Below are positions 15,424 to 62,187 of a stretch of DNA of 64,000 nucleotides, in pieces; position 1 is the stretch's first letter; each line of letters begins with the position of its first letter. This stretch comes from Candidatus Omnitrophota bacterium (GTDB lineage: Bacteria > Omnitrophota > Gorgyraeia > Gygaellales > Profunditerraquicolaceae). The notes below the pieces were generated by a model. That model had not been told where the DNA came from. It made no database searches and saw nothing but the letters and a program-made list of their open reading frames with translations. The position numbers were made by a program, and so were the translations under genes. The DNA lies in assembly GCA_018825985.1 (NCBI GenBank), contig JAHKAP010000052.1:6373-70372 (forward strand). Reading direction: 5' to 3'.

Positions 15424-15620
15424 AGCCGATAAAGGCAAACTCTGGGAAACCAGGGGGCCCCTGCGGATTTATCGCAGGGCCCACTTAAGCCAAACGTGTA
15501 AACAGTCTGGCGTAGGCGGGGCAAAGCCACAGGCCTAATCCTGCCGATAGTAGAGGTGGGGATGGCGGCTGGGTTGCCGAAAGGGGCGAGGATATTTTAA
15601 TAGACCCGCCTTTATCGGCT
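15424..15620 (+). ncRNA. Candidate ~197-nt structured RNA of unassigned class (GEMM/c-di-GMP-I-like signatures, or a novel sRNA)
   Basis: 5' AGCCGAUAAAGGC pairs with 3' GCCUUUAUCGGCU (13 bp). Internal CUGG-GAAA-CCAG GNRA hairpin preceded by GCAAAC. 11-bp GC hairpin GGGGGCCCCUGCG/CGCAGGGCCC. GGGGCAAAGCC-ACA-GGCCUAA string. Own promoter and downstream terminator. No ORF. Confidence 0.35.
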
Positions 15621-15697: not shown

Positions 15698-16921
15698 ATG
15701 ATTGTTTTCCCTCAGGGTTTTTTATGGGGCGCGGCCACTTCTGCCCATCAAGTCGAAGGCGAAAATAGAAATAATGATTGGTGGAAGTGGGAGAGGTCCG
15801 CAAATTTGAAAGAAACCTCCGGGAGCGCCTGCCGGCATTACCAGCTTTTTAAAGAAGACTTTGATCTGGCCCGGTCCCTCAATCATAATTGCCATCGTTT
15901 TTCAATCGAATGGAGCCGTATATTTCCTTCCAGCGGCGCAATTTCTCGCGAAGAGCTTACGCATTATCGGAATGTTATCCAGGCGTTAAAAGAACGGGGC
16001 CTGGAGCCTATAGTTAGTCTCCATCATTTTACCAATCCTCTTTGGTTCAGTAAATTAGGCGGCTGGGAGAATCCGGGATCTCAAGGGCACTACTTAAATT
16101 ATGTCCGCAGGGTAGTGGAAGAATTCGCCGATTTGGTTAAATATTGGGTGACTATTAATGAGCCTATGGTTTACGTTTATTATTCTTATGTTATCGGCGC
16201 CTGGCCCCCGCAGGAAAAATCTTTTTTAAAAGCCAGAAGAGTTACCGCTAATCTTATTTCCGCGCATACCCAAGCTTATAAATTGATCCAGGTAATTTAT
16301 AGAAATAAGGGATTGCCTAAGCCTGAGGTTGGCATCGCCAAGAATATGCAGGCTTTTGTTCCCTGCAAAAATAACTTTAGGAACAGATTGGCGGTTTATC
16401 TGCGGGATAAATCATTTAACTTCGATTTTCTAAACAAGTTGGCAAAGTCTAAAACCATGGATTTCATCGGGGTAAACTATTATACCCGTAGCCTGGTTGA
16501 GACTTCCAGTTGGTCGCTGAATAACGTATTGACCCGGATCTGCCAGGACAACCATAGTTCTCTTCTTAAGAATTCCTTAGGTTGGGATATTTACCCTGAA
16601 GGATTAGTCGACCTTTTATTAAGGCTCAAAATTTACGATCTTCCGGTGATAATCCTGGAGAATGGAATTTGTACTATGGATGATGCTCTAAGATGGAATT
16701 TTATTAATCAGCACCTGAAAAGTATAGGCATTGCCTTAGCCAAAGGAGTAAGGATTTCAGGTTATATCTATTGGTCCCTTTTGGATAATTTTGAATGGGA
16801 CAAAGGTTTTGGTCCCCGCTTCGGTTTAATCGGAGTAGATTATTCTGATTTCAGGCGCACGGTCAGAGAGAGCGCAAGAATTTTTTCCCTGGTTTGCAAA
16901 ACCGGGATACTTGAGCAATGA
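15698..16921 (+). CDS. Glycoside hydrolase family 1 beta-glucosidase
   Basis: GH1 N-terminus FPQGFLWGAATSAHQVEG, acid/base region TINEP, nucleophile region ILENG. Extended -10 TGgTATAAT at 15682-15690 lies only 7 nt from the ATG, with no SD, so the mRNA is probably leaderless. Confidence 0.8.
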   Translation: MIVFPQGFLWGAATSAHQVEGENRNNDWWKWERSANLKETSGSACRHYQLFKEDFDLARSLNHNCHRFSIEWSRIFPSSGAISREELTHYRNVIQALKERGLEPIVSLHHFTNPLWFSKLGGWENPGSQGHYLNYVRRVVEEFADLVKYWVTINEPMVYVYYSYVIGAWPPQEKSFLKARRVTANLISAHTQAYKLIQVIYRNKGLPKPEVGIAKNMQAFVPCKNNFRNRLAVYLRDKSFNFDFLNKLAKSKTMDFIGVNYYTRSLVETSSWSLNNVLTRICQDNHSSLLKNSLGWDIYPEGLVDLLLRLKIYDLPVIILENGICTMDDALRWNFINQHLKSIGIALAKGVRISGYIYWSLLDNFEWDKGFGPRFGLIGVDYSDFRRTVRESARIFSLVCKTGILEQ

Positions 16922-46050: not shown

Positions 46051-46093
46051 AGGGACACCCTCGCAGCTAAAGCTAAGGGTGTCCCTTTTTTTA
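46051..46093 (+). terminator. Terminator formed by a GGGACACCCT palindromic repeat (copy 2), followed by T7
   Basis: AGGGACACCCT-CGCAGCTAAAGCTA-AGGGTGTCCCT then TTTTTTT. Immediately follows the carB stop. Confidence 0.7.
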
Positions 46094-46099
46094 TTCCTT

Positions 46100-46136
46100 G
46101 GGGGACACCCTCCCGATTAGCTGCAAGGGTGTCCCT
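46100..46136. repeat. GGGGGACACCCT-loop-AGGGTGTCCCT palindromic repeat (copy 3)
   Basis: Same arms as copies 1 and 2, with a different loop (CCCGATTAGCTGCA). Confidence 0.6.
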
Positions 46137-55772: not shown

Positions 55773-56144
55773 ATGCCTAAGAAGACAATCTTAGTAGTTG
55801 ATAACAAGCCGGATATTTTAGAATTCTTACAGAAAAGACTGGAGTCTCAGGATTATCAAGTAATTACCGCTTCCGATGGCGTTGAAGGCCTTAAAAAGGC
55901 TATCAGCCAAGAAATAGACTTAGTCTTGTTAGATATTGCCATGCCTAAGAAAGACGGTTTTGCTATGCTTAAAGAACTAAAGTCCCAGGAGGCGACTAAG
56001 GATATACAGGTAATTATCGTTTCGGCTAAAAGAGAGACTAAATCTATATTGGAAGGACAAAATTTAGGCAGTTTTGATTATTTCCTTAAGCCTTTTAATT
56101 TCGAAGAATTAATTAAGCATATCAAAAGGTGTGTCTGGAGTTAA
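55773..56144 (+). CDS. Single-domain response regulator (receiver only)
   Basis: ILVVDNKPD ... DLVLLDIAMPKKDG ... FLKPF receiver motifs. Confidence 0.75.
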   Translation: MPKKTILVVDNKPDILEFLQKRLESQDYQVITASDGVEGLKKAISQEIDLVLLDIAMPKKDGFAMLKELKSQEATKDIQVIIVSAKRETKSILEGQNLGSFDYFLKPFNFEELIKHIKRCVWS

Positions 56145-56150
56145 AAAAAA

Positions 56151-56205
56151 CGGGGTCAGAATTATTTTTTAAGACAAATACGGTGAAAAAATAATTCTGA
56201 CCCCG
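56151..56205. terminator. Bidirectional terminator formed by a GGGGTCAGAATTATTTTTT palindromic repeat (copy 1 of 2)
   Basis: 20-bp arms. A-run upstream and T-run downstream. Lies between convergent genes. Confidence 0.7.
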
Positions 56206-56208
56206 TTT

Positions 56209-57345
56209 TTATTTAAGATAATCTAAGATAATTTTGGCGGCACGGATTGCTGCGCCAGGCGAGCCTAACTGATACTTAACTTCAGCCAGCCCTTTAGTCA
56301 TTTCATCTATTTCGGAAGGGTTGTTCAATAAGGCGATTGCTTCCTTAGCGATCTTCTCCGGTTTTGCTTGATACTGGATAAATTCAGGGATTATTGACCT
56401 GTCTGCCACAAGGTTTACCATTCCGATAAAAGGAACTTTTACCAAAGGACGGTATAAAAAATAATTCAGCCAGCTCATTTTATAGATTATAAAAAAAGGC
56501 TTCTTCATGATCGTGGTTTCTAAAGTAGCGGTCCCGGAACAGACTAAAGCGAAATCCGCGGCCTCCAGGCAATCATATGTCCTGGCCTCGACTATCCTTA
56601 AATCAAAACCCGGATTTTCTGTCAATCGTTCATATATAGAAATATCGACTTGAGCTGATTTAGCGATAATAAACTGGGTATTTTTAATCCTTTGATTTAT
56701 TAACCCGGCGGACTCAAGCATTATCGGCAGGATATTCTCGATCTCCTGTTTGCGGGAACCAGGCAAAAGAGCGATAGTGATATTTGTTTGGGATAATTTT
56801 ATATTCTCAAGTATCATTGTTCTTTGTTTCTGCGGTTTGACAATATCCAACAGGGGATGTCCGGTAAAATCAACCCTTAGGCCCTGGCGCAGGTAAAAAT
56901 CCTCCTCGAATTTAAAAAGAACGACCATCCGATGAATATATTTTTTTATAGTTTTTATCCTGCCCGGCCGGCTGGCCCAGACCTGAGGGGAGACATAATA
57001 TATGACCGGGATCTTTTTATTGATTGCTTTAGCCAGCCTGAGGTTGAATCCGGAGAAATCCACCAGGATTATCCCTGAAGGCTTTACTTCATCAATTTTC
57101 TTAAGGATTAATTCTTTTAAGGCTAGGAATTTGGGGAGTTTTTTCAGGGCGTCAAAAAAACCGAATACGGCTAATTCTTTAATATCGCAATAAATCTCAG
57201 CGGCAGTTTCACTTAATGAATTTCCTCCCACCCCGGAGATTCTAATTTGTGGGTCAATTTTCTTGATAGCCCTGGCCAGCTCTCCGGCAAGCAGATCGCC
57301 TGAGGGTTCTCCGCAGATTATCAGGATCTCTTTTGTTTGCGCCAT
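56209..57345 (-). CDS. lpxB: Lipid-A-disaccharide synthase
   Basis: LpxB N-terminus (ILIICGEPSGDLLAGELARAI) and GT-B fold motifs. Confidence 0.85.
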   Translation of the reverse strand: MAQTKEILIICGEPSGDLLAGELARAIKKIDPQIRISGVGGNSLSETAAEIYCDIKELAVFGFFDALKKLPKFLALKELILKKIDEVKPSGIILVDFSGFNLRLAKAINKKIPVIYYVSPQVWASRPGRIKTIKKYIHRMVVLFKFEEDFYLRQGLRVDFTGHPLLDIVKPQKQRTMILENIKLSQTNITIALLPGSRKQEIENILPIMLESAGLINQRIKNTQFIIAKSAQVDISIYERLTENPGFDLRIVEARTYDCLEAADFALVCSGTATLETTIMKKPFFIIYKMSWLNYFLYRPLVKVPFIGMVNLVADRSIIPEFIQYQAKPEKIAKEAIALLNNPSEIDEMTKGLAEVKYQLGSPGAAIRAAKIILDYLK

Positions 57346-58253: not shown

Positions 58254-58300
58254 AATATGAATGATAACAAATCCGGCTTTGGGTTGCAAGATAAATTATT

Positions 58301-58366
58301 AAATGGGGACAGCGACTATTTTTTCTCCCCCCTATTTGTGGAGAAAAATAGTCGCTGTCCCCATTT
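58301..58366. repeat. Long imperfect palindrome (27-28-bp arms) AAATGGGGACAGCGACTATTTTTTCTCC / GGAGAAAAATAGTCGCTGTCCCCATTT
   Basis: Located between divergent genes. The arm pattern GGGG-N-CAG-N3-4-TATTTTTT is related to the 56151 and 62492 repeats. Confidence 0.6.
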
Positions 58367-58411
58367 AAATTTTGCTTGATATTTAGGCATATCATATTAT
58401 CATATAACTAT

Positions 58412-59008
58412 ATGAATATTCAGAGGGTTAAGAAAAAAAATCCTGCTGGGCTTACCCCCGTACCTTTTATATATTTAAATAGTTTTAGAATAGTAAAGTA
58501 TTTAAAGCGATTGAATGTAAAAAAGGTGCGGGGACTTACCATTATTGAATTAATAATGGTAATTATTATAATCGGTATTTTAGCGGTTTTAGCCCTGCCC
58601 CGTTTTGACAGTTTTTATGAGATTAAACTTAATGGCGCGGTCAAGAAAGTAATTTCAGATATAAGATATGCCCAGCAAATAGCTATCTCCCACCACACGG
58701 ATTACCGGGTAAATTTCTCCGGGAATAGTTATAATGTCCGCCGGGTTTCTGACGGAGCGTACGCTATCAGCCCTTTTACCCGCGGGGATCTGACAATAAA
58801 TTTTAATACCGATCAGCAATATAAAGGAATAACTATCAGCGGCCCGAATTTCGCAGGTACCACGGATTTAAGATTTAATTGGCTGGGGAATCCTCAAGGC
58901 GGCACAGGTGGAAATTTGACTATTGCCGGGCAGGTCACCTTTTCGTATCAAGGGAACTCTTTGACTATTTACGTTGAGCCTGGAACAGGAAGAGTGAGCG
59001 CGCAATGA
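58412..59008 (+). CDS. Type IV pilin-like protein with an unusually long N-terminal leader (alternative TTG start at 58511 would give MNVKKVRG/LTIIE)
   Basis: Prepilin cleavage/methylation motif KKVRG-LTIIELIMV followed by a hydrophobic helix. 32 in-frame residues upstream are conserved with the 59537 paralog. Confidence 0.65.
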   Translation: MNIQRVKKKNPAGLTPVPFIYLNSFRIVKYLKRLNVKKVRGLTIIELIMVIIIIGILAVLALPRFDSFYEIKLNGAVKKVISDIRYAQQIAISHHTDYRVNFSGNSYNVRRVSDGAYAISPFTRGDLTINFNTDQQYKGITISGPNFAGTTDLRFNWLGNPQGGTGGNLTIAGQVTFSYQGNSLTIYVEPGTGRVSAQ

Positions 59009-59532
59009 AACAAAAAGGTCTAACTTTAATTGAAATGGTGGCGATAATCGTAATTTTAGGATTGACGATCCCCGTGCTTCTGACAATGTGGGCGGATGTG
59101 GCCTGGCGTTCAGCCCGCTCCGAGCAATTAGCCGACGCAACTTTTTACGCCCAGCAATTAATGGAGGAAGTTAGGTCTAAGAGGTTCGACGATAAATCCG
59201 GCCAGCCCTGGACCAACAGCGCTAGTTTTGGTGTGGATACCGGAGAAAGCAGTTCAAACAGTGCCGGGTTTGACGATATCGATGATTTTATAGGCTCTAC
59301 CGATACTAATATTACCACTCCAACTCCGGGTTTTACCCGCTCCGTAACTATGGACTATGTAAGGATTCCGGCTAATAATACCTGGACAAGTTGCGGGGCT
59401 ACGGTTTGTAGCACAACTTTCAATTGTACTTTATGCGCTGCCTGCTGCTATAAGCGGATCCAGGTTTCTGTAGCCAGTAATATTCCTAACGCCGGCAACG
59501 CCACCCTGGTAACTATAATGAGCAGTTACTAA
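59005..59532 (+). CDS. Type IV pilin/pseudopilin
   Basis: Short leader MKQKG-LTLIEMVAIIVILG. Overlaps the upstream stop. Confidence 0.7.
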   Translation: MKQKGLTLIEMVAIIVILGLTIPVLLTMWADVAWRSARSEQLADATFYAQQLMEEVRSKRFDDKSGQPWTNSASFGVDTGESSSNSAGFDDIDDFIGSTDTNITTPTPGFTRSVTMDYVRIPANNTWTSCGATVCSTTFNCTLCAACCYKRIQVSVASNIPNAGNATLVTIMSSY

Positions 59533-59536
59533 AAAT

Positions 59537-60130
59537 ATGGACATGAAGAGCAAGAAATCTGATTCCGGACTTACCCCCGCACATTCTAAATATTTAATTT
59601 TTTTTAAATTAGCAAAGCCTTTAAAACGATTGAATACCAAAAAGGCGCGGGGGTTTACCCTGATCGAGGCGATAATGGTTATTGTGATCGTGGGTATTTT
59701 AGCTGGCGGCTCCTCAATGTATATAAAACAGGTTATAAACTTATGGAGTTTTCAGAATTTCCGCGAGGAAGCGGTTTCGCAAGGCCGGATCGCTCTAATC
59801 AGGATTTCCCGAGAGATCCGCCAGATCAAAGATCCATATTCGGTAAATGCAGCTAATCAGACGGTTTTTTCTTTTGTGGATTACAATAATAATACGATCA
59901 GCTATAGCCTCTCAGGCACTGCCCTAAACCGTAATTCCAACCTTCTGATCTCAGGAGTGAATAATCTCGCCTTTTCCTATTACGATGATAATAACCAGCC
60001 GGTTGTTTCGCCAACCCTGGCTCCTTACAGGACAAATATCTATAGGATAAATATAGATTTTCAAGTTCAATCCGGCGGCCAAACCAAGAATTTAAAAACT
60101 CAGGTCTGGCCGAGGAATTTTATTTATTAG
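59537..60130 (+). CDS. Type IV pilin-like protein with long leader (alternative TTG start giving MNTKKARG/FTLIEA)
   Basis: KKARG-FTLIEAIMVIVIVG motif. Upstream in-frame region is a paralog of 58412. Confidence 0.6.
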   Translation: MDMKSKKSDSGLTPAHSKYLIFFKLAKPLKRLNTKKARGFTLIEAIMVIVIVGILAGGSSMYIKQVINLWSFQNFREEAVSQGRIALIRISREIRQIKDPYSVNAANQTVFSFVDYNNNTISYSLSGTALNRNSNLLISGVNNLAFSYYDDNNQPVVSPTLAPYRTNIYRINIDFQVQSGGQTKNLKTQVWPRNFIY

Positions 60131-60138
60131 CAAAAATT

Positions 60139-62187
60139 ATGAAAAAAGAAAAAGGCGTAGCTTTGATAATTGTCATTTTCGGAATCATGCTCTTGGCTGT
60201 ATTAGGCTGGACCTTAGTTTCTTTACAGTCGGGCGATTTTGATTTTAATCTGCGTAATCTAGAATCTGAAAGGGCTTTATTCCTGGCTGAGGCCGGGATA
60301 CATGAAGCAATGGTACTTTTAAAAAACTCAGATGCCTCATTTGATAATGATGCGGATATAATAACCCGGACTTTGAATTACGGGCAATATAGGCTTACCC
60401 GTTCCACAGTAGGTTCTGCTACTGAGGTCATTGCAACCGGATGTATTCCTACGGTCGCCAACCCCAGGGCAACCAGGGTAGTTAAGGTCGCAGTAGCCGC
60501 GGCTGTTTGGAGTAACGCGGTAGGCGGAGCGAATATTTTTGATTGGTCAGAAATGACTACGGGTTGGTTATTCAGTTCGCGGATAAGGGGTAATGTTACC
60601 GCCAAATATTTTGAAGGCGACGGAGATCCTGCTTATAACGAGCTGGGGGTTGATTACGATGTACCTCCTAATGCCTTGCCTCCGCCGAATTCAGGTTATG
60701 ACCGGACAGTCGGGACCATTACTATGCCTGAGATCGATATGGATTATTATAAGAATAAAGCGATAGGCTCAAACCATTATATTTATTCCCCTTATATCTA
60801 TCTGGCCAGCGCTGACAAAGGATTAACCGCTTTGAATAATAATATAACTAATCCTACTTCTGTAGGGTCTCTTAATACCGCCGGCAGGGTTTACGATATC
60901 CAGGGGTTTGTTGTCTACGGAGGGAATTATTATACCTGTTTAGTGGATACTCAGAGCGGCCGGGAATTTAAAATGATCCGGATCAATGATCCGCCTACCA
61001 GCCCCACTGTAGCGGATTATTGCAATATCGGAAATACCCCTTACGGAGTATTTGCCCAATTAAATAATAATTATGCTCCTACCTATGCTTTTGTTGCTGC
61101 CGGGCCTGATGGTTTTCAGGTTGTAGATATATCGAATCCCGCCAACCCTTCTTTAGTAAGAACATTAAGTTTAGGAGGGGGGATTGCTTATGGGGTTTAT
61201 GCCCGGGCTATTTATGCTTTTGTTGCCTGCGGCTCTGCCGGCCTAAAGATAATCAATATCTCTAATCCGGGGAACCCGAGTTTATTATGGACTTATAATA
61301 CCTCCGGGACTAGCCGGGGGGTATATGTCCGGGGTAGATTTGCTTATGTTGCAGATGGAGACCAAGGTTTAAACATAGTCAATATCTCCATAGCTCCTTT
61401 ATTTTTTTCTCCTTCTTCCAGGGCAACCGTGGCTACCGGTGGGACGTGTTATAATGTTTATCTTAGGGGTAATTATGCTTATGTTGCCTGCGGCACAGCC
61501 GGTTTAAAAGTAATTGACATCTCAAATATTAATAATGATTTTTTTACCCCTACGGTAGTTGCTACTTATGCCACTAGTCCCGATGACGCTACTGATGTGC
61601 AGATATCCGGTGATTACGCCTATGTATCTTGCAGTACCAGCGGCAACAAAGGCAAGGTCAAGATCGTAAATATCATTGATCCTACGGCGCCTGCTCTATC
61701 AGGAGAATATATTGATACTGCGAGCAATAGCAACGGCCTGGCGGTTTATCTGCGAGGAGATAGGTATTTTGACGGGAATTGGAATAACGAAAAGATCTGG
61801 TATACTACTGGAAATTTTATGATCGGCGGTGGAAATTTTCAAAAAACTTCTTTTGTTTCTGAAGGCGATACCGAGCTCCCTGGTTTATCCGGCATAGTAA
61901 TGAGGGCTCATGTATTGGCTAGCGCGAACGAGAACTTTCCCAATTTGGCCACTAAGAATGGAAGTATAGTCTCCGAAGGCATACTGGGCATTACAAAGGA
62001 TTTTGACGGCCTGGTGTTTACCGAAAAAGGCAGTATTATTTTTAACGGGATCAGTGGTTGCGCGGCAATTGGCTACAATGTATTTTTAAGCGATATCTGC
62101 GATATTACATATAGCGGTAAATATGTAGGTTCTCCTCCGGATGGAATCGTCGCGGGGGTAGGTATCAGCGAGTGGAGAGAGGAATAA
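60139..62187 (+). CDS. Pilus-associated protein: PilX-like N-terminal pilin helix + LVIVD-repeat beta-propeller
   Basis: N-terminus MKKEKGVALIIVIFGIMLLAVLG. At least five repeats of the form YAFVA.G..GL.I.NISNP..P.L. Confidence 0.65.
   Translation: MKKEKGVALIIVIFGIMLLAVLGWTLVSLQSGDFDFNLRNLESERALFLAEAGIHEAMVLLKNSDASFDNDADIITRTLNYGQYRLTRSTVGSATEVIATGCIPTVANPRATRVVKVAVAAAVWSNAVGGANIFDWSEMTTGWLFSSRIRGNVTAKYFEGDGDPAYNELGVDYDVPPNALPPPNSGYDRTVGTITMPEIDMDYYKNKAIGSNHYIYSPYIYLASADKGLTALNNNITNPTSVGSLNTAGRVYDIQGFVVYGGNYYTCLVDTQSGREFKMIRINDPPTSPTVADYCNIGNTPYGVFAQLNNNYAPTYAFVAAGPDGFQVVDISNPANPSLVRTLSLGGGIAYGVYARAIYAFVACGSAGLKIINISNPGNPSLLWTYNTSGTSRGVYVRGRFAYVADGDQGLNIVNISIAPLFFSPSSRATVATGGTCYNVYLRGNYAYVACGTAGLKVIDISNINNDFFTPTVVATYATSPDDATDVQISGDYAYVSCSTSGNKGKVKIVNIIDPTAPALSGEYIDTASNSNGLAVYLRGDRYFDGNWNNEKIWYTTGNFMIGGGNFQKTSFVSEGDTELPGLSGIVMRAHVLASANENFPNLATKNGSIVSEGILGITKDFDGLVFTEKGSIIFNGISGCAAIGYNVFLSDICDITYSGKYVGSPPDGIVAGVGISEWREE

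Follow-up and report, generated by a model that had tools for sequence, protein, structure and literature searches.

Two minor pilin genes of a Candidatus Omnitrophota bacterium carry leaders of 41 and 39 amino acids that resemble each other and stand in front of intact prepilin cleavage sites, and the question raised by this locus is where such leaders came from. The genes, g1 and g3, belong to a four-gene minor-pilin operon (g1, g2, g3 and g4) on the + strand of a metagenome-assembled genome, and we analysed the 64,000-nucleotide stretch that holds it (contig JAHKAP010000052.1 of assembly GCA_018825985.1), hereafter called the window. Our analysis indicates, with a probability of roughly 0.85, that both are short prepilin leaders that were interrupted by a non-autonomous palindromic mobile element, resembling a miniature inverted-repeat transposable element (MITE) and, in its behaviour, the Rickettsia palindromic elements (RPEs). 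Loci in other genomes and in metagenome contigs are labelled L below, and proteins P; a slash in a protein sequence marks the prepilin cleavage site.

Translation of g1 from the ATG at 58412 gives MNIQRVKKKNPAGLTPVPFIYLNSFRIVKYLKRLNVKKVRG/LTIIE, with a 41-residue leader, and translation of g3 from the ATG at 59537 gives MDMKSKKSDSGLTPAHSKYLIFFKLAKPLKRLNTKKARG/FTLIEA, with a 39-residue leader. Both proteins have the hallmarks of prepilins (KKVRG/LTIIELIMVIIIIGILAV in g1 and KKARG/FTLIEAIMVIVIVGILAG in g3, with Gly-1, Phe, Leu or Met at +1, Glu+5, a hydrophobic helix and a basic leader), and Pfam N_methyl matches them with E = 5e-4 and 1.6e-7, respectively. These motifs and leader lengths are as the original prediction had described them from the sequence; it had also called the upstream start the only ATG, ~40 codons away, and here the lengths of 41 and 39 stand but g3 has two upstream ATGs (M1 and M3). 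The genes and the parts of the insertions have the following positions in the window.

58412..59008, + strand: g1, a GspH/FimT-like minor prepilin (Pfam GspH and N_methyl)
58412-58450, + strand: ancestral leader of g1, M1 to G13, MNIQRVKKKNPAG
58451..58454, + strand: left target-site duplication in g1, CTTA, from the comparison of filled and empty sites
58455..58534, + strand: element copy 1, 80 nt, with ends CCCCCGTACCTTTT...AAAAAGGTGCGGGGA
58535..58538, + strand: right target-site duplication in g1, CTTA, covering the Leu+1 codon plus base 1 of the Thr+2 codon
59537..60130, + strand: g3, a PilW-like minor prepilin (Pfam N_methyl) with the ancestral leader MDMKSKKSDSG
59570..59573, + strand: left target-site duplication in g3, CTTA
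59574..59653, + strand: element copy 2, 80 nt and more decayed, CCCCCGCACATTCT...AAAAAGGCGCGGGGG, the last codon of which, GGG, is Gly-1
59654..59657, + strand: right target-site duplication in g3, TTTA, covering the Phe+1 codon plus base 1 of the Thr+2 codon

The clearest evidence for insertion comes from orthologous sites with and without the element. Filled g1 and g3 sites are found in the window and at loci L001 and L003, and empty sites are found at L133 (g1), at L004 (g1 and g3) and in P0016. The empty g1 site of L133 reads AAT CCT GCT GGG TTT ACC ATT ATC GAA, encoding MNSQWVKKKNPAG/FTIIE, whereas g1 of the window reads AAT CCT GCT GGG CTTA (80 nt) CTTA CC ATT ATT GAA; at the junction, CTGCTGGG CTTA (element) CTTA CCATTATT in the window thus faces CTGCTGGG TTTA CCATTATC in L133. 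Comparison of the filled and empty sites therefore defines an insertion of 80 nt plus a 4-nt duplication, or 84 nt (28 codons), at the tetranucleotide that comprises the +1 codon and base 1 of the +2 codon. Three g1 proteins, P0018 (MNSQWVKKKNPAG/FTIIE), P0016 and P0028, share the start of g1 and lack the insert, and the leaders of insert-free orthologues are 4–13 residues long. For g3, the extension is present in the closest homologues, in L001 (77% identical) and L003 (76%), and the more distant orthologues P0004-P0009 have leaders of 6–9 residues. The duplicated tetranucleotides are CTTA and CTTA in g1, CTTA and TTTA in g3, and TTTA and TTTA in g3 of L001 and in two further loci, L127 and L131.

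The inserted element is an 80-nt imperfect palindrome with 13–14-bp terminal inverted repeats, CCCCCGYACCTTTT and AAAAGGYGCGGGG, and lies within the codons GGN-TTY-ACC for Gly-1, Phe+1 and Thr+2. Its copies are predicted to fold into hairpins of -36.8 kcal/mol (z = -5.4) for copy 1 and -29.5 kcal/mol (z = -2.6) for copy 2, in which the closing stem pairs CCCCGYACCUUUU with AAAAGGYGCGGGG. A profile search of the 64-kb window with nhmmer returned exactly these two copies (E = 4e-24 for copy 1 and 2e-23 for copy 2). The two, ~78% identical, lie in direct orientation at a distance of 1119 nt, and if they recombined, the mature part of g1 would be lost together with g2 and the g1 leader fused to g3.

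The likeness of the two leaders lies at the level of DNA, because copies 1 and 2 are 78% identical over the 78-nt core (71% over the 111 nt of the leader) whereas the next 111 nt of coding sequence of g1 and g3 are 45% identical, and because the leader mismatches fall 8/16/8 on codon positions 1/2/3. This bears on the idea that the paralogues share an ancestral long signal of the type IVb kind, kept at the protein level. Type IVb prepilins such as TcpA, BfpA, CofA and LngA have a long basic leader that is cut by the prepilin peptidase after Gly-1, and both leader frames here are open and agree at 17 of 29 positions, counted from GLTP through RG (the original prediction counted 15 of 32; the resemblance is real and far beyond chance, and it is the count that changes). 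However, nucleotide identity exceeds amino acid identity, the third codon position shows no excess of mismatches of the kind that selection on the leader peptide had been expected to leave, and the same DNA also occurs outside genes, at L005. Short-leader orthologues of both genes, from which the insert is simply missing, already contradict a shared ancestral signal. Nor do the proteins fit the type IVb class to which they had been likened: they are GspH/FimT-like and PilW-like minor pilins of a cluster of the type IVa pilus and type II secretion (T4a/T2SS) kind, and the neighbours of the operon in L001 and L003 are genes for T2SSF/PilC, PilM, PilN and a secretin. The long leader of type IVb prepilins is an ancestral trait of a distinct class with its own machinery, whereas the length here comes from a 28-codon insertion into T4a/T2SS-type minor pilins, the sister lineages of which have leaders of 9–13 residues. 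We thus regard an ancestral type IVb-like signal as very improbable and attribute the conservation to two copies of one mobile palindromic element. The type IVb precedent does show that prepilin machinery tolerates long leaders.

The element belongs to a dispersed family. A pattern scan of GTDB genomes located a third copy in an intergenic spacer of L003's genome (L005:6382-6459), followed by T8, and matched one related genome, GCA_043812955.1. A second scan, of JGI metagenomes, asked for the two 13-bp ends 40–64 nt apart, and hairpins of 66–89 nt with these shared ends occur on at least 120 contigs, with variable interiors and almost invariant ends. Identical 4-nt direct flanks border 39 of 101 distinct copies, whereas shuffled pairing gave 5.5 on average and never more than 11; the identical flanks are of the types TAAA/TTTA (20), TCAA/TTGA (14), TTAA (2), TTCA (1) and CTTA (1). 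The identity of the flanks seldom reaches 5 nt, and around intergenic copies there is no preference for G...C in addition to TTNA. Nested and tandem copies, each with a 4-nt duplication of its own, are found at L109:339-522, L110:6006-6189, L065:532-680 and L039:481-631. A search of the metagenomes with the 3' half of the window element (TTTAAANCGNTTGAATNNNNAAAAGGNNCGGG) gave 0 matches, so the subfamily of the window is absent from the JGI set. These flank statistics led us to drop an insertion 3' of TTAC of the IS200/IS605 or REP type in favour of a 4-nt duplication. A DNA-uptake sequence was also considered, since the 13-mer AAGGTGCGGGG resembles the Haemophilus uptake signal sequence AAGTGCGGT, and was ruled out: the 13-mer occurs almost only in paired hairpin arms and just twice in the 64 kb.

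Members of the family also reside in frame in genes with no relation to pili. They are found in TilS (L095), where the PP-loop domain is interrupted, in an HhH-GPD (Nth-like) glycosylase (L094), in UvrC just before the GIY-YIG domain (L075), in an RT-like open reading frame (L035) and in a 1242-residue protein (L064), and in all five the element length plus 4 is divisible by 3. A CCCCGCACCTTTT family member also lies at L026:1577-1645 inside an RNase P RNA gene (1558-1975), in the P3 region and directly before the conserved GGAAAGUCCGG, with further cases at L082 and L125; the element seems to be tolerated within a structured RNA gene too. Where matching ends pair over a long range in the loci examined, what lies between them is housekeeping genes (for ABC transporters, ArgC and ribosomal proteins) and not transposases. 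There is no clear enrichment of the family near pilin genes, as among 121 hairpins only 4 have a pilin motif within 700 nt, which is not clearly above chance. Two tandem copies do stand just upstream of a pilin gene in L039, and one copy stands 20 nt before a pilin ATG in L117.

Pilin leaders have been occupied repeatedly at the same codons. On metagenome contig L089, a different member of the family has inserted into a PilA-like gene at this position (MRKKGATLRRT-FTPHLL...EYKKGAG/FTLVE), with a TTCA duplication and with its 3' repeat read in another frame. A homology search with the L089 protein gave 117 PilA-like relatives, mostly of 141 residues and with the leader M[KR][KR][AG]/FTLVE; four of these (P0038, P0042, P0047 and P0065) have the same 29-residue insert, making five with L089. 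A second type of insert, of 19–23 residues and the form FTPLE...SLTG/FTLVE, is present in ~10 of the 117. It stems from a second hairpin family, 53 nt long and bounded by CCCCGTTAGA(A/G)A...TCTAACGGGG, that sits between perfect TTTA duplicates (L127:1513-1573 and L131 at ~124-184) and is found in the PilA-like Omnitrophota proteins P0036, P0043, P0091, P0094, P0096, P0109 and P0110; in some of its copies an in-frame ATG precedes the cleavage site by 5–6 codons. A third variant may be present in P0041 and P0073. The DNA of L127, L129 and L131 confirms that the inserts lie between the old leader and FTLVE, and in L129 it reads TTTG-(CCCCGCACC...GGTGCGGGG)-TTTA. Taken together, the inserts in the window genes, in L089 and in L127, L129 and L131 point to at least 4–6 independent events in three different pilin genes, all at one codon junction. 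For both hairpin families, a search of viral contigs gave 0 matches.

The sequences of these elements suggest how a prepilin could survive such an event. The ancestral leaders were MNIQRVKKKNPAG/F/LTIIE in g1, with either Phe or Leu after the cleavage site, and about MDMKSKKSDSG/FTLIE in g3. The element is present at TTTA or CTTA, duplicated on both sides, and the insertion lengthens each gene by 84 nt (28 codons). With GGG(G/A) at the end of the element, the right-hand TTT or CTT is again preceded by a Gly codon, and the cleavage site, including a basic stretch in front of it, is thus rebuilt automatically. When TTY is the +1 codon, the ...CGGGG end and the TTYA duplication common to both hairpin families put GGG or GGA before the right-hand copy and leave Thr+2 to Glu+5 as they were. 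In g1, copy 1 and the left duplication together read LTPVPFIYLNSFRIVKYLKRLNVKKVRG, with the last three bases as the Gly-1 codon. The 3' repeat (AAA AAG GTG CGG GGA) encodes K-K-V-R-G in the frame used in the window, or K-K-V/A-R-G across g1 and g3, whereas the left-hand duplicate of the site is now a degenerate G-L-T-P; peptides of the element region include LTPVPFIYLNSFR and YLIFFK. Translation would run from the ancestral ATG through the element, and the prepilin peptidase would cut after the new Gly and discard the 39–41-residue leader. Since the leader would be discarded by cleavage, the insertion should be nearly neutral and could have been kept through speciation. The site would be hit repeatedly, or insertions there would repeatedly survive, because every pilin gene offers a self-repairing TTYA target, and the recurrence could reflect survival, targeting or both. 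The stable mRNA hairpin may lower translation.

The elements might also be more than passengers. The hairpin families could have adapted to the GGN-TTY-ACC codons and be used to tune the dosage or processing of pilins: their CCCCG...CGGGG ends, together with the TTTA target, would rebuild Gly-1/Phe+1, add a basic leader and place a hairpin at the 5' end of the mRNA, and some copies would supply an internal start. On this account, which we think doubtful, the leader would be an evolvable 'docking site' (compare the MerR-type helix-turn-helix leaders of P0020 and P0021, below).

If the leaders arose by insertion, the start codon becomes a separate question, and two starts compete in each gene. 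The features that bear on it are given here.

58376..58403, + strand: promoter-like site TTGATA-N16-TATCAT, with 10 of 12 consensus matches, ending 8 nt before the g1 ATG
58511..58513, + strand: in-frame TTG in the 3' arm of copy 1, the alternative start MNVKKVRG/LTIIE, as in the NCBI annotation
59630-59632, + strand: in-frame TTG in copy 2, an alternative start giving the leader MNTKKARG

Translation probably starts at the ancestral ATG and reads through the element. The start MNIQRVKKK is common to g1 of the window and the empty-site orthologues, and in L004 and L133, two loci with empty sites, the block TTGATA-N16-TATCAT-N8-ATG is likewise conserved at the head of the gene; together these identify the upstream ATG as the ancestral start. 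The promoter-like site of g1, as a consensus match, predicts a leaderless or near-leaderless mRNA. The region of interest had previously been drawn from 58376, a position that is simply the earliest TTG in the open frame and coincides with the -35-like hexamer of this site. In g3, only 4 nt separate the g2 stop codon from the ATG. No Shine-Dalgarno (SD) sequence precedes either candidate start in g1 or g3, in agreement with the original prediction, but this is not special, because a clear SD is found in just 19 of the 48 genes of the window; in L127 and L129 a clear SD is kept before the ancestral ATG. A random family member in a random orientation would be free of stops and compatible in length with a given frame in 8–10% of cases, and all pilin-embedded copies are compatible.

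The other possibility is that the insertion is mobile DNA as proposed but that translation starts at the in-frame TTG, giving MNVKKVRG and MNTKKARG and leaving the ATG and the 5' half of the element as a 5' untranslated region. This TTG was correctly placed 8 codons before the cleavage site in both genes by the original prediction, and it is in frame at that distance in all six pilin copies of the subfamily. The NCBI annotation uses it for g1 here and in L003, and in L001 the ancestral ATG of g1 has been separated from the gene by a second insertion with a stop codon. Against this, the TTG lacks an SD and is buried inside a hairpin of -30 to -37 kcal/mol, in the 3' arm of the inner stem, and the intergenic copy L005 has it in its stem, just as well conserved. 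Furthermore, the upstream frame is still open and every indel is a multiple of 3, as seen in later indels within the element of 3 nt (g3 of L001) and 27 nt (g3 of L003); the insertions in L089 and L129 persist with no in-frame ATG, GTG or TTG inside the element; and the ancestral ATG is still preceded by promoter-like sequence in g1 and still coupled to the g2 stop codon in g3. Orthologues without the upstream region had been expected to favour the TTG; short-leader orthologues that lack the insert do exist, and those of g1 share the ancestral upstream ATG. We therefore consider a TTG start unlikely, and read-through from the ATG and initiation at the TTG could both be used. In this respect the earlier view of a translated long signal holds in part: translation is probable, given the retained ATG and promoter context, the open frame and indels in multiples of three, and it is the type IVb identity of the signal that fails.

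The stability of the hairpins also raises the question of whether they are selected as RNA. A cis-regulatory element that sets the dosage of the minor pilins (an attenuator, a thermosensor or a protein-binding site), with the palindromic origin secondary, would account for a very stable hairpin within the first 125 nt of the message, for its retention in two genes across three genomes (the g3 proteins being ~77% identical) and for the frequency of leader insertions in PilA-like genes (~14 of 117 cluster representatives). However, although 91% of stem cells are paired over three helices in 7 copies, there are 0 compensatory pair changes among these copies and the pairing is no better than in column shuffles; copy 2 is gaining mismatches in its stem; and the same hairpin family occurs in unrelated genes and spacers. 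Rfam gave no match to the hairpin in the whole window at the gathering threshold, in the region at E <= 10 or in 20 hairpin-bearing loci; what these scans did match were generic miRNA-like or long-hairpin models far below threshold, RNase P and tRNAs. No T-run follows the hairpin in the pilin genes, and no terminator was found on the + strand. A selected regulatory role thus appears improbable. The idea of a conserved untranslated element, the alternative in the original prediction, had sensed a nucleic-acid element correctly, but covariation and other signs of a regulatory RNA are absent.

Several observations weigh against a mobile insertion that is read through. No transposase with matching ends was found in the ~790 kb examined, and the case for mobility thus rests on the empty and filled sites, the target duplications and the dispersal, and not on a known mechanism. 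The copy number near this genome is low, with 2 copies in the 64-kb window and 3 matches to the strict pattern in GCA_043812955.1. The g3 duplication is imperfect (CTTA and TTTA), and there is none around the intergenic copy L005. The element copies are 76–91% identical to each other, and the insertions are thus old and not recently active. A leader of 39–41 residues exceeds the 15–30 residues of characterised type IVb leaders. NCBI starts g1 at the TTG (P0013, 165 residues, and P0015 in L003); the g3 annotation instead uses the second upstream ATG, at 59543 (P0001, 195 residues), which is inconsistent with that of g1 in one operon. Finally, in L001 (GCA_041643395.1) a second insertion of ~290 nt lies in the g1 leader codons right after MNIQRIKKK (L001:4611-4899). 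This insertion contains a hairpin flanked by 13-nt direct repeats (GATTACAGAGATT and GATTACACAGATT) and had no match in a plasmid collection. Its stop codon cuts off the ancestral ATG, and g1 of L001 must therefore use another start, either a new ATG or the TTG of the element.

The two other genes of the operon are free of the insert.

59005..59532, + strand: g2, a minor pilin with an ordinary short leader, MKQKG/LTLIEMV, and the insert-free site GGT CTA ACT
60139..62187, + strand: g4, a large PilX-like protein with LVIVD repeats, the final gene of the operon, insert-free

A prepilin peptidase, proposed as a check on the leaders, was absent from the window as far as covered: no Peptidase_A24 was found among the 20 open reading frames scanned with Pfam. 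In two g1 orthologues, P0020 and P0021, a 56-residue MerR/Xis-type helix-turn-helix (PF13411, PF00376) takes the place of the leader, right before GRG/VTLIE, and P0020 (L134:345-998) has its own promoter-like site and SD. This architecture is unusual, as cleavage by the peptidase would free a DNA-binding domain into the cytoplasm.

Other hairpins were seen in the window. A perfect hairpin with 25-bp arms (TTAAATGGGGACAGCGACTATTTTT..., 58299-58368; -45.9 kcal/mol, z = -12) lies between a divergent oxidoreductase gene and the g1 promoter-like site, a position that is not terminator-like, and the orthologous locus L133 has a different hairpin in the same place (~375-430); the hairpin at 58299-58368 may be another palindromic repeat. 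Long G/C-capped hairpins are also present at 56143-56213 and 46052-46136, one of them between convergent genes with the look of a bidirectional terminator and the other a tandem pair, GGGACACCCT...AGGGTGTCCC, after a carB-like gene. Elsewhere, a cyclic di-GMP-I (c-di-GMP-I) riboswitch aptamer (15424-15581, + strand; 41 bits against a gathering score of 35) stands a short way upstream of a gene for a family 1 glycoside hydrolase (15698-16921), and a further copy of this riboswitch family is present in metagenome locus L061:6176-6319.

How do these elements compare with known ones? RPEs were reportedly described by Ogata et al. in 2000 as 'selfish DNA in protein-coding genes'. They reside in frame in unrelated protein-coding genes (PMC10969869). 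Like them, our element is short and palindromic, sits in frame in unrelated genes, adds a tolerated peptide, occurs in both genes and spacers and has no transposase of its own. The likeness is one of behaviour, and there are differences: the element is 66–89 nt long, whereas RPEs are ~100–150 nt, it has a 4-nt TTNA target duplication and sharply conserved 13-bp ends, its hosts are Omnitrophota and other uncultivated bacteria unrelated to Rickettsia, and within a cleaved leader it regenerates the processing site and leaves the mature protein unchanged. Bacterial MITEs (Correia/CREE, ERIC, RUP and BOX; PMC10969869) similarly are small, have terminal inverted repeats, target duplications and hairpin transcripts, are found as dispersed and nested copies and occasionally fuse in frame with host open reading frames. 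In contrast to these, no parent insertion sequence was found here in ~790 kb, and the interior is highly variable between almost invariant 13-bp ends. The piggyBac elements have 13–14-bp terminal repeats starting with CCC and duplicate the 4-bp TTAA, and have prokaryotic relatives in IS1380 (PMC10140906). Our element has 13–14-bp ends that likewise begin with CCC, and it too duplicates 4 nt, although its TTAA-like target is looser, TTNA (TTTA, TTGA, TTAA or TTCA). No piggyBac- or IS1380-like transposase was found beside any copy, and the resemblance is therefore only a lead.

In-frame palindromic elements are thus already known. What appears to be new is the element family, its presence in Omnitrophota and the repeated occupation of prepilin cleavage-site codons with automatic restoration. 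An exact search of the literature for the 13-mer returned nothing relevant and a search for MITE with Omnitrophota returned 0 papers; in these searches and in one review (PMC10969869) there was no report of recurrent occupation of one codon junction in a protein family. Metagenomes contain an apparently undescribed and widespread hairpin family, recognisable by its 13-bp CCCCGCACCTTTT ends and the duplication of 4 nt at TTNA. For the pilins, the insertion would be tolerated because the leader is cleaved and the terminal GGG restores the essential Gly-1 of the interrupted site, which explains the odd NCBI annotation and gives a rule for spotting such leaders in other pilins of Omnitrophota. If the 39–41-residue leaders are made and cleaved, they would show how far the substrate tolerance of prepilin peptidase extends. 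And as the family behaves like RPEs, the phenomenon of in-frame 'selfish DNA in genes' would extend to free-living uncultivated phyla.

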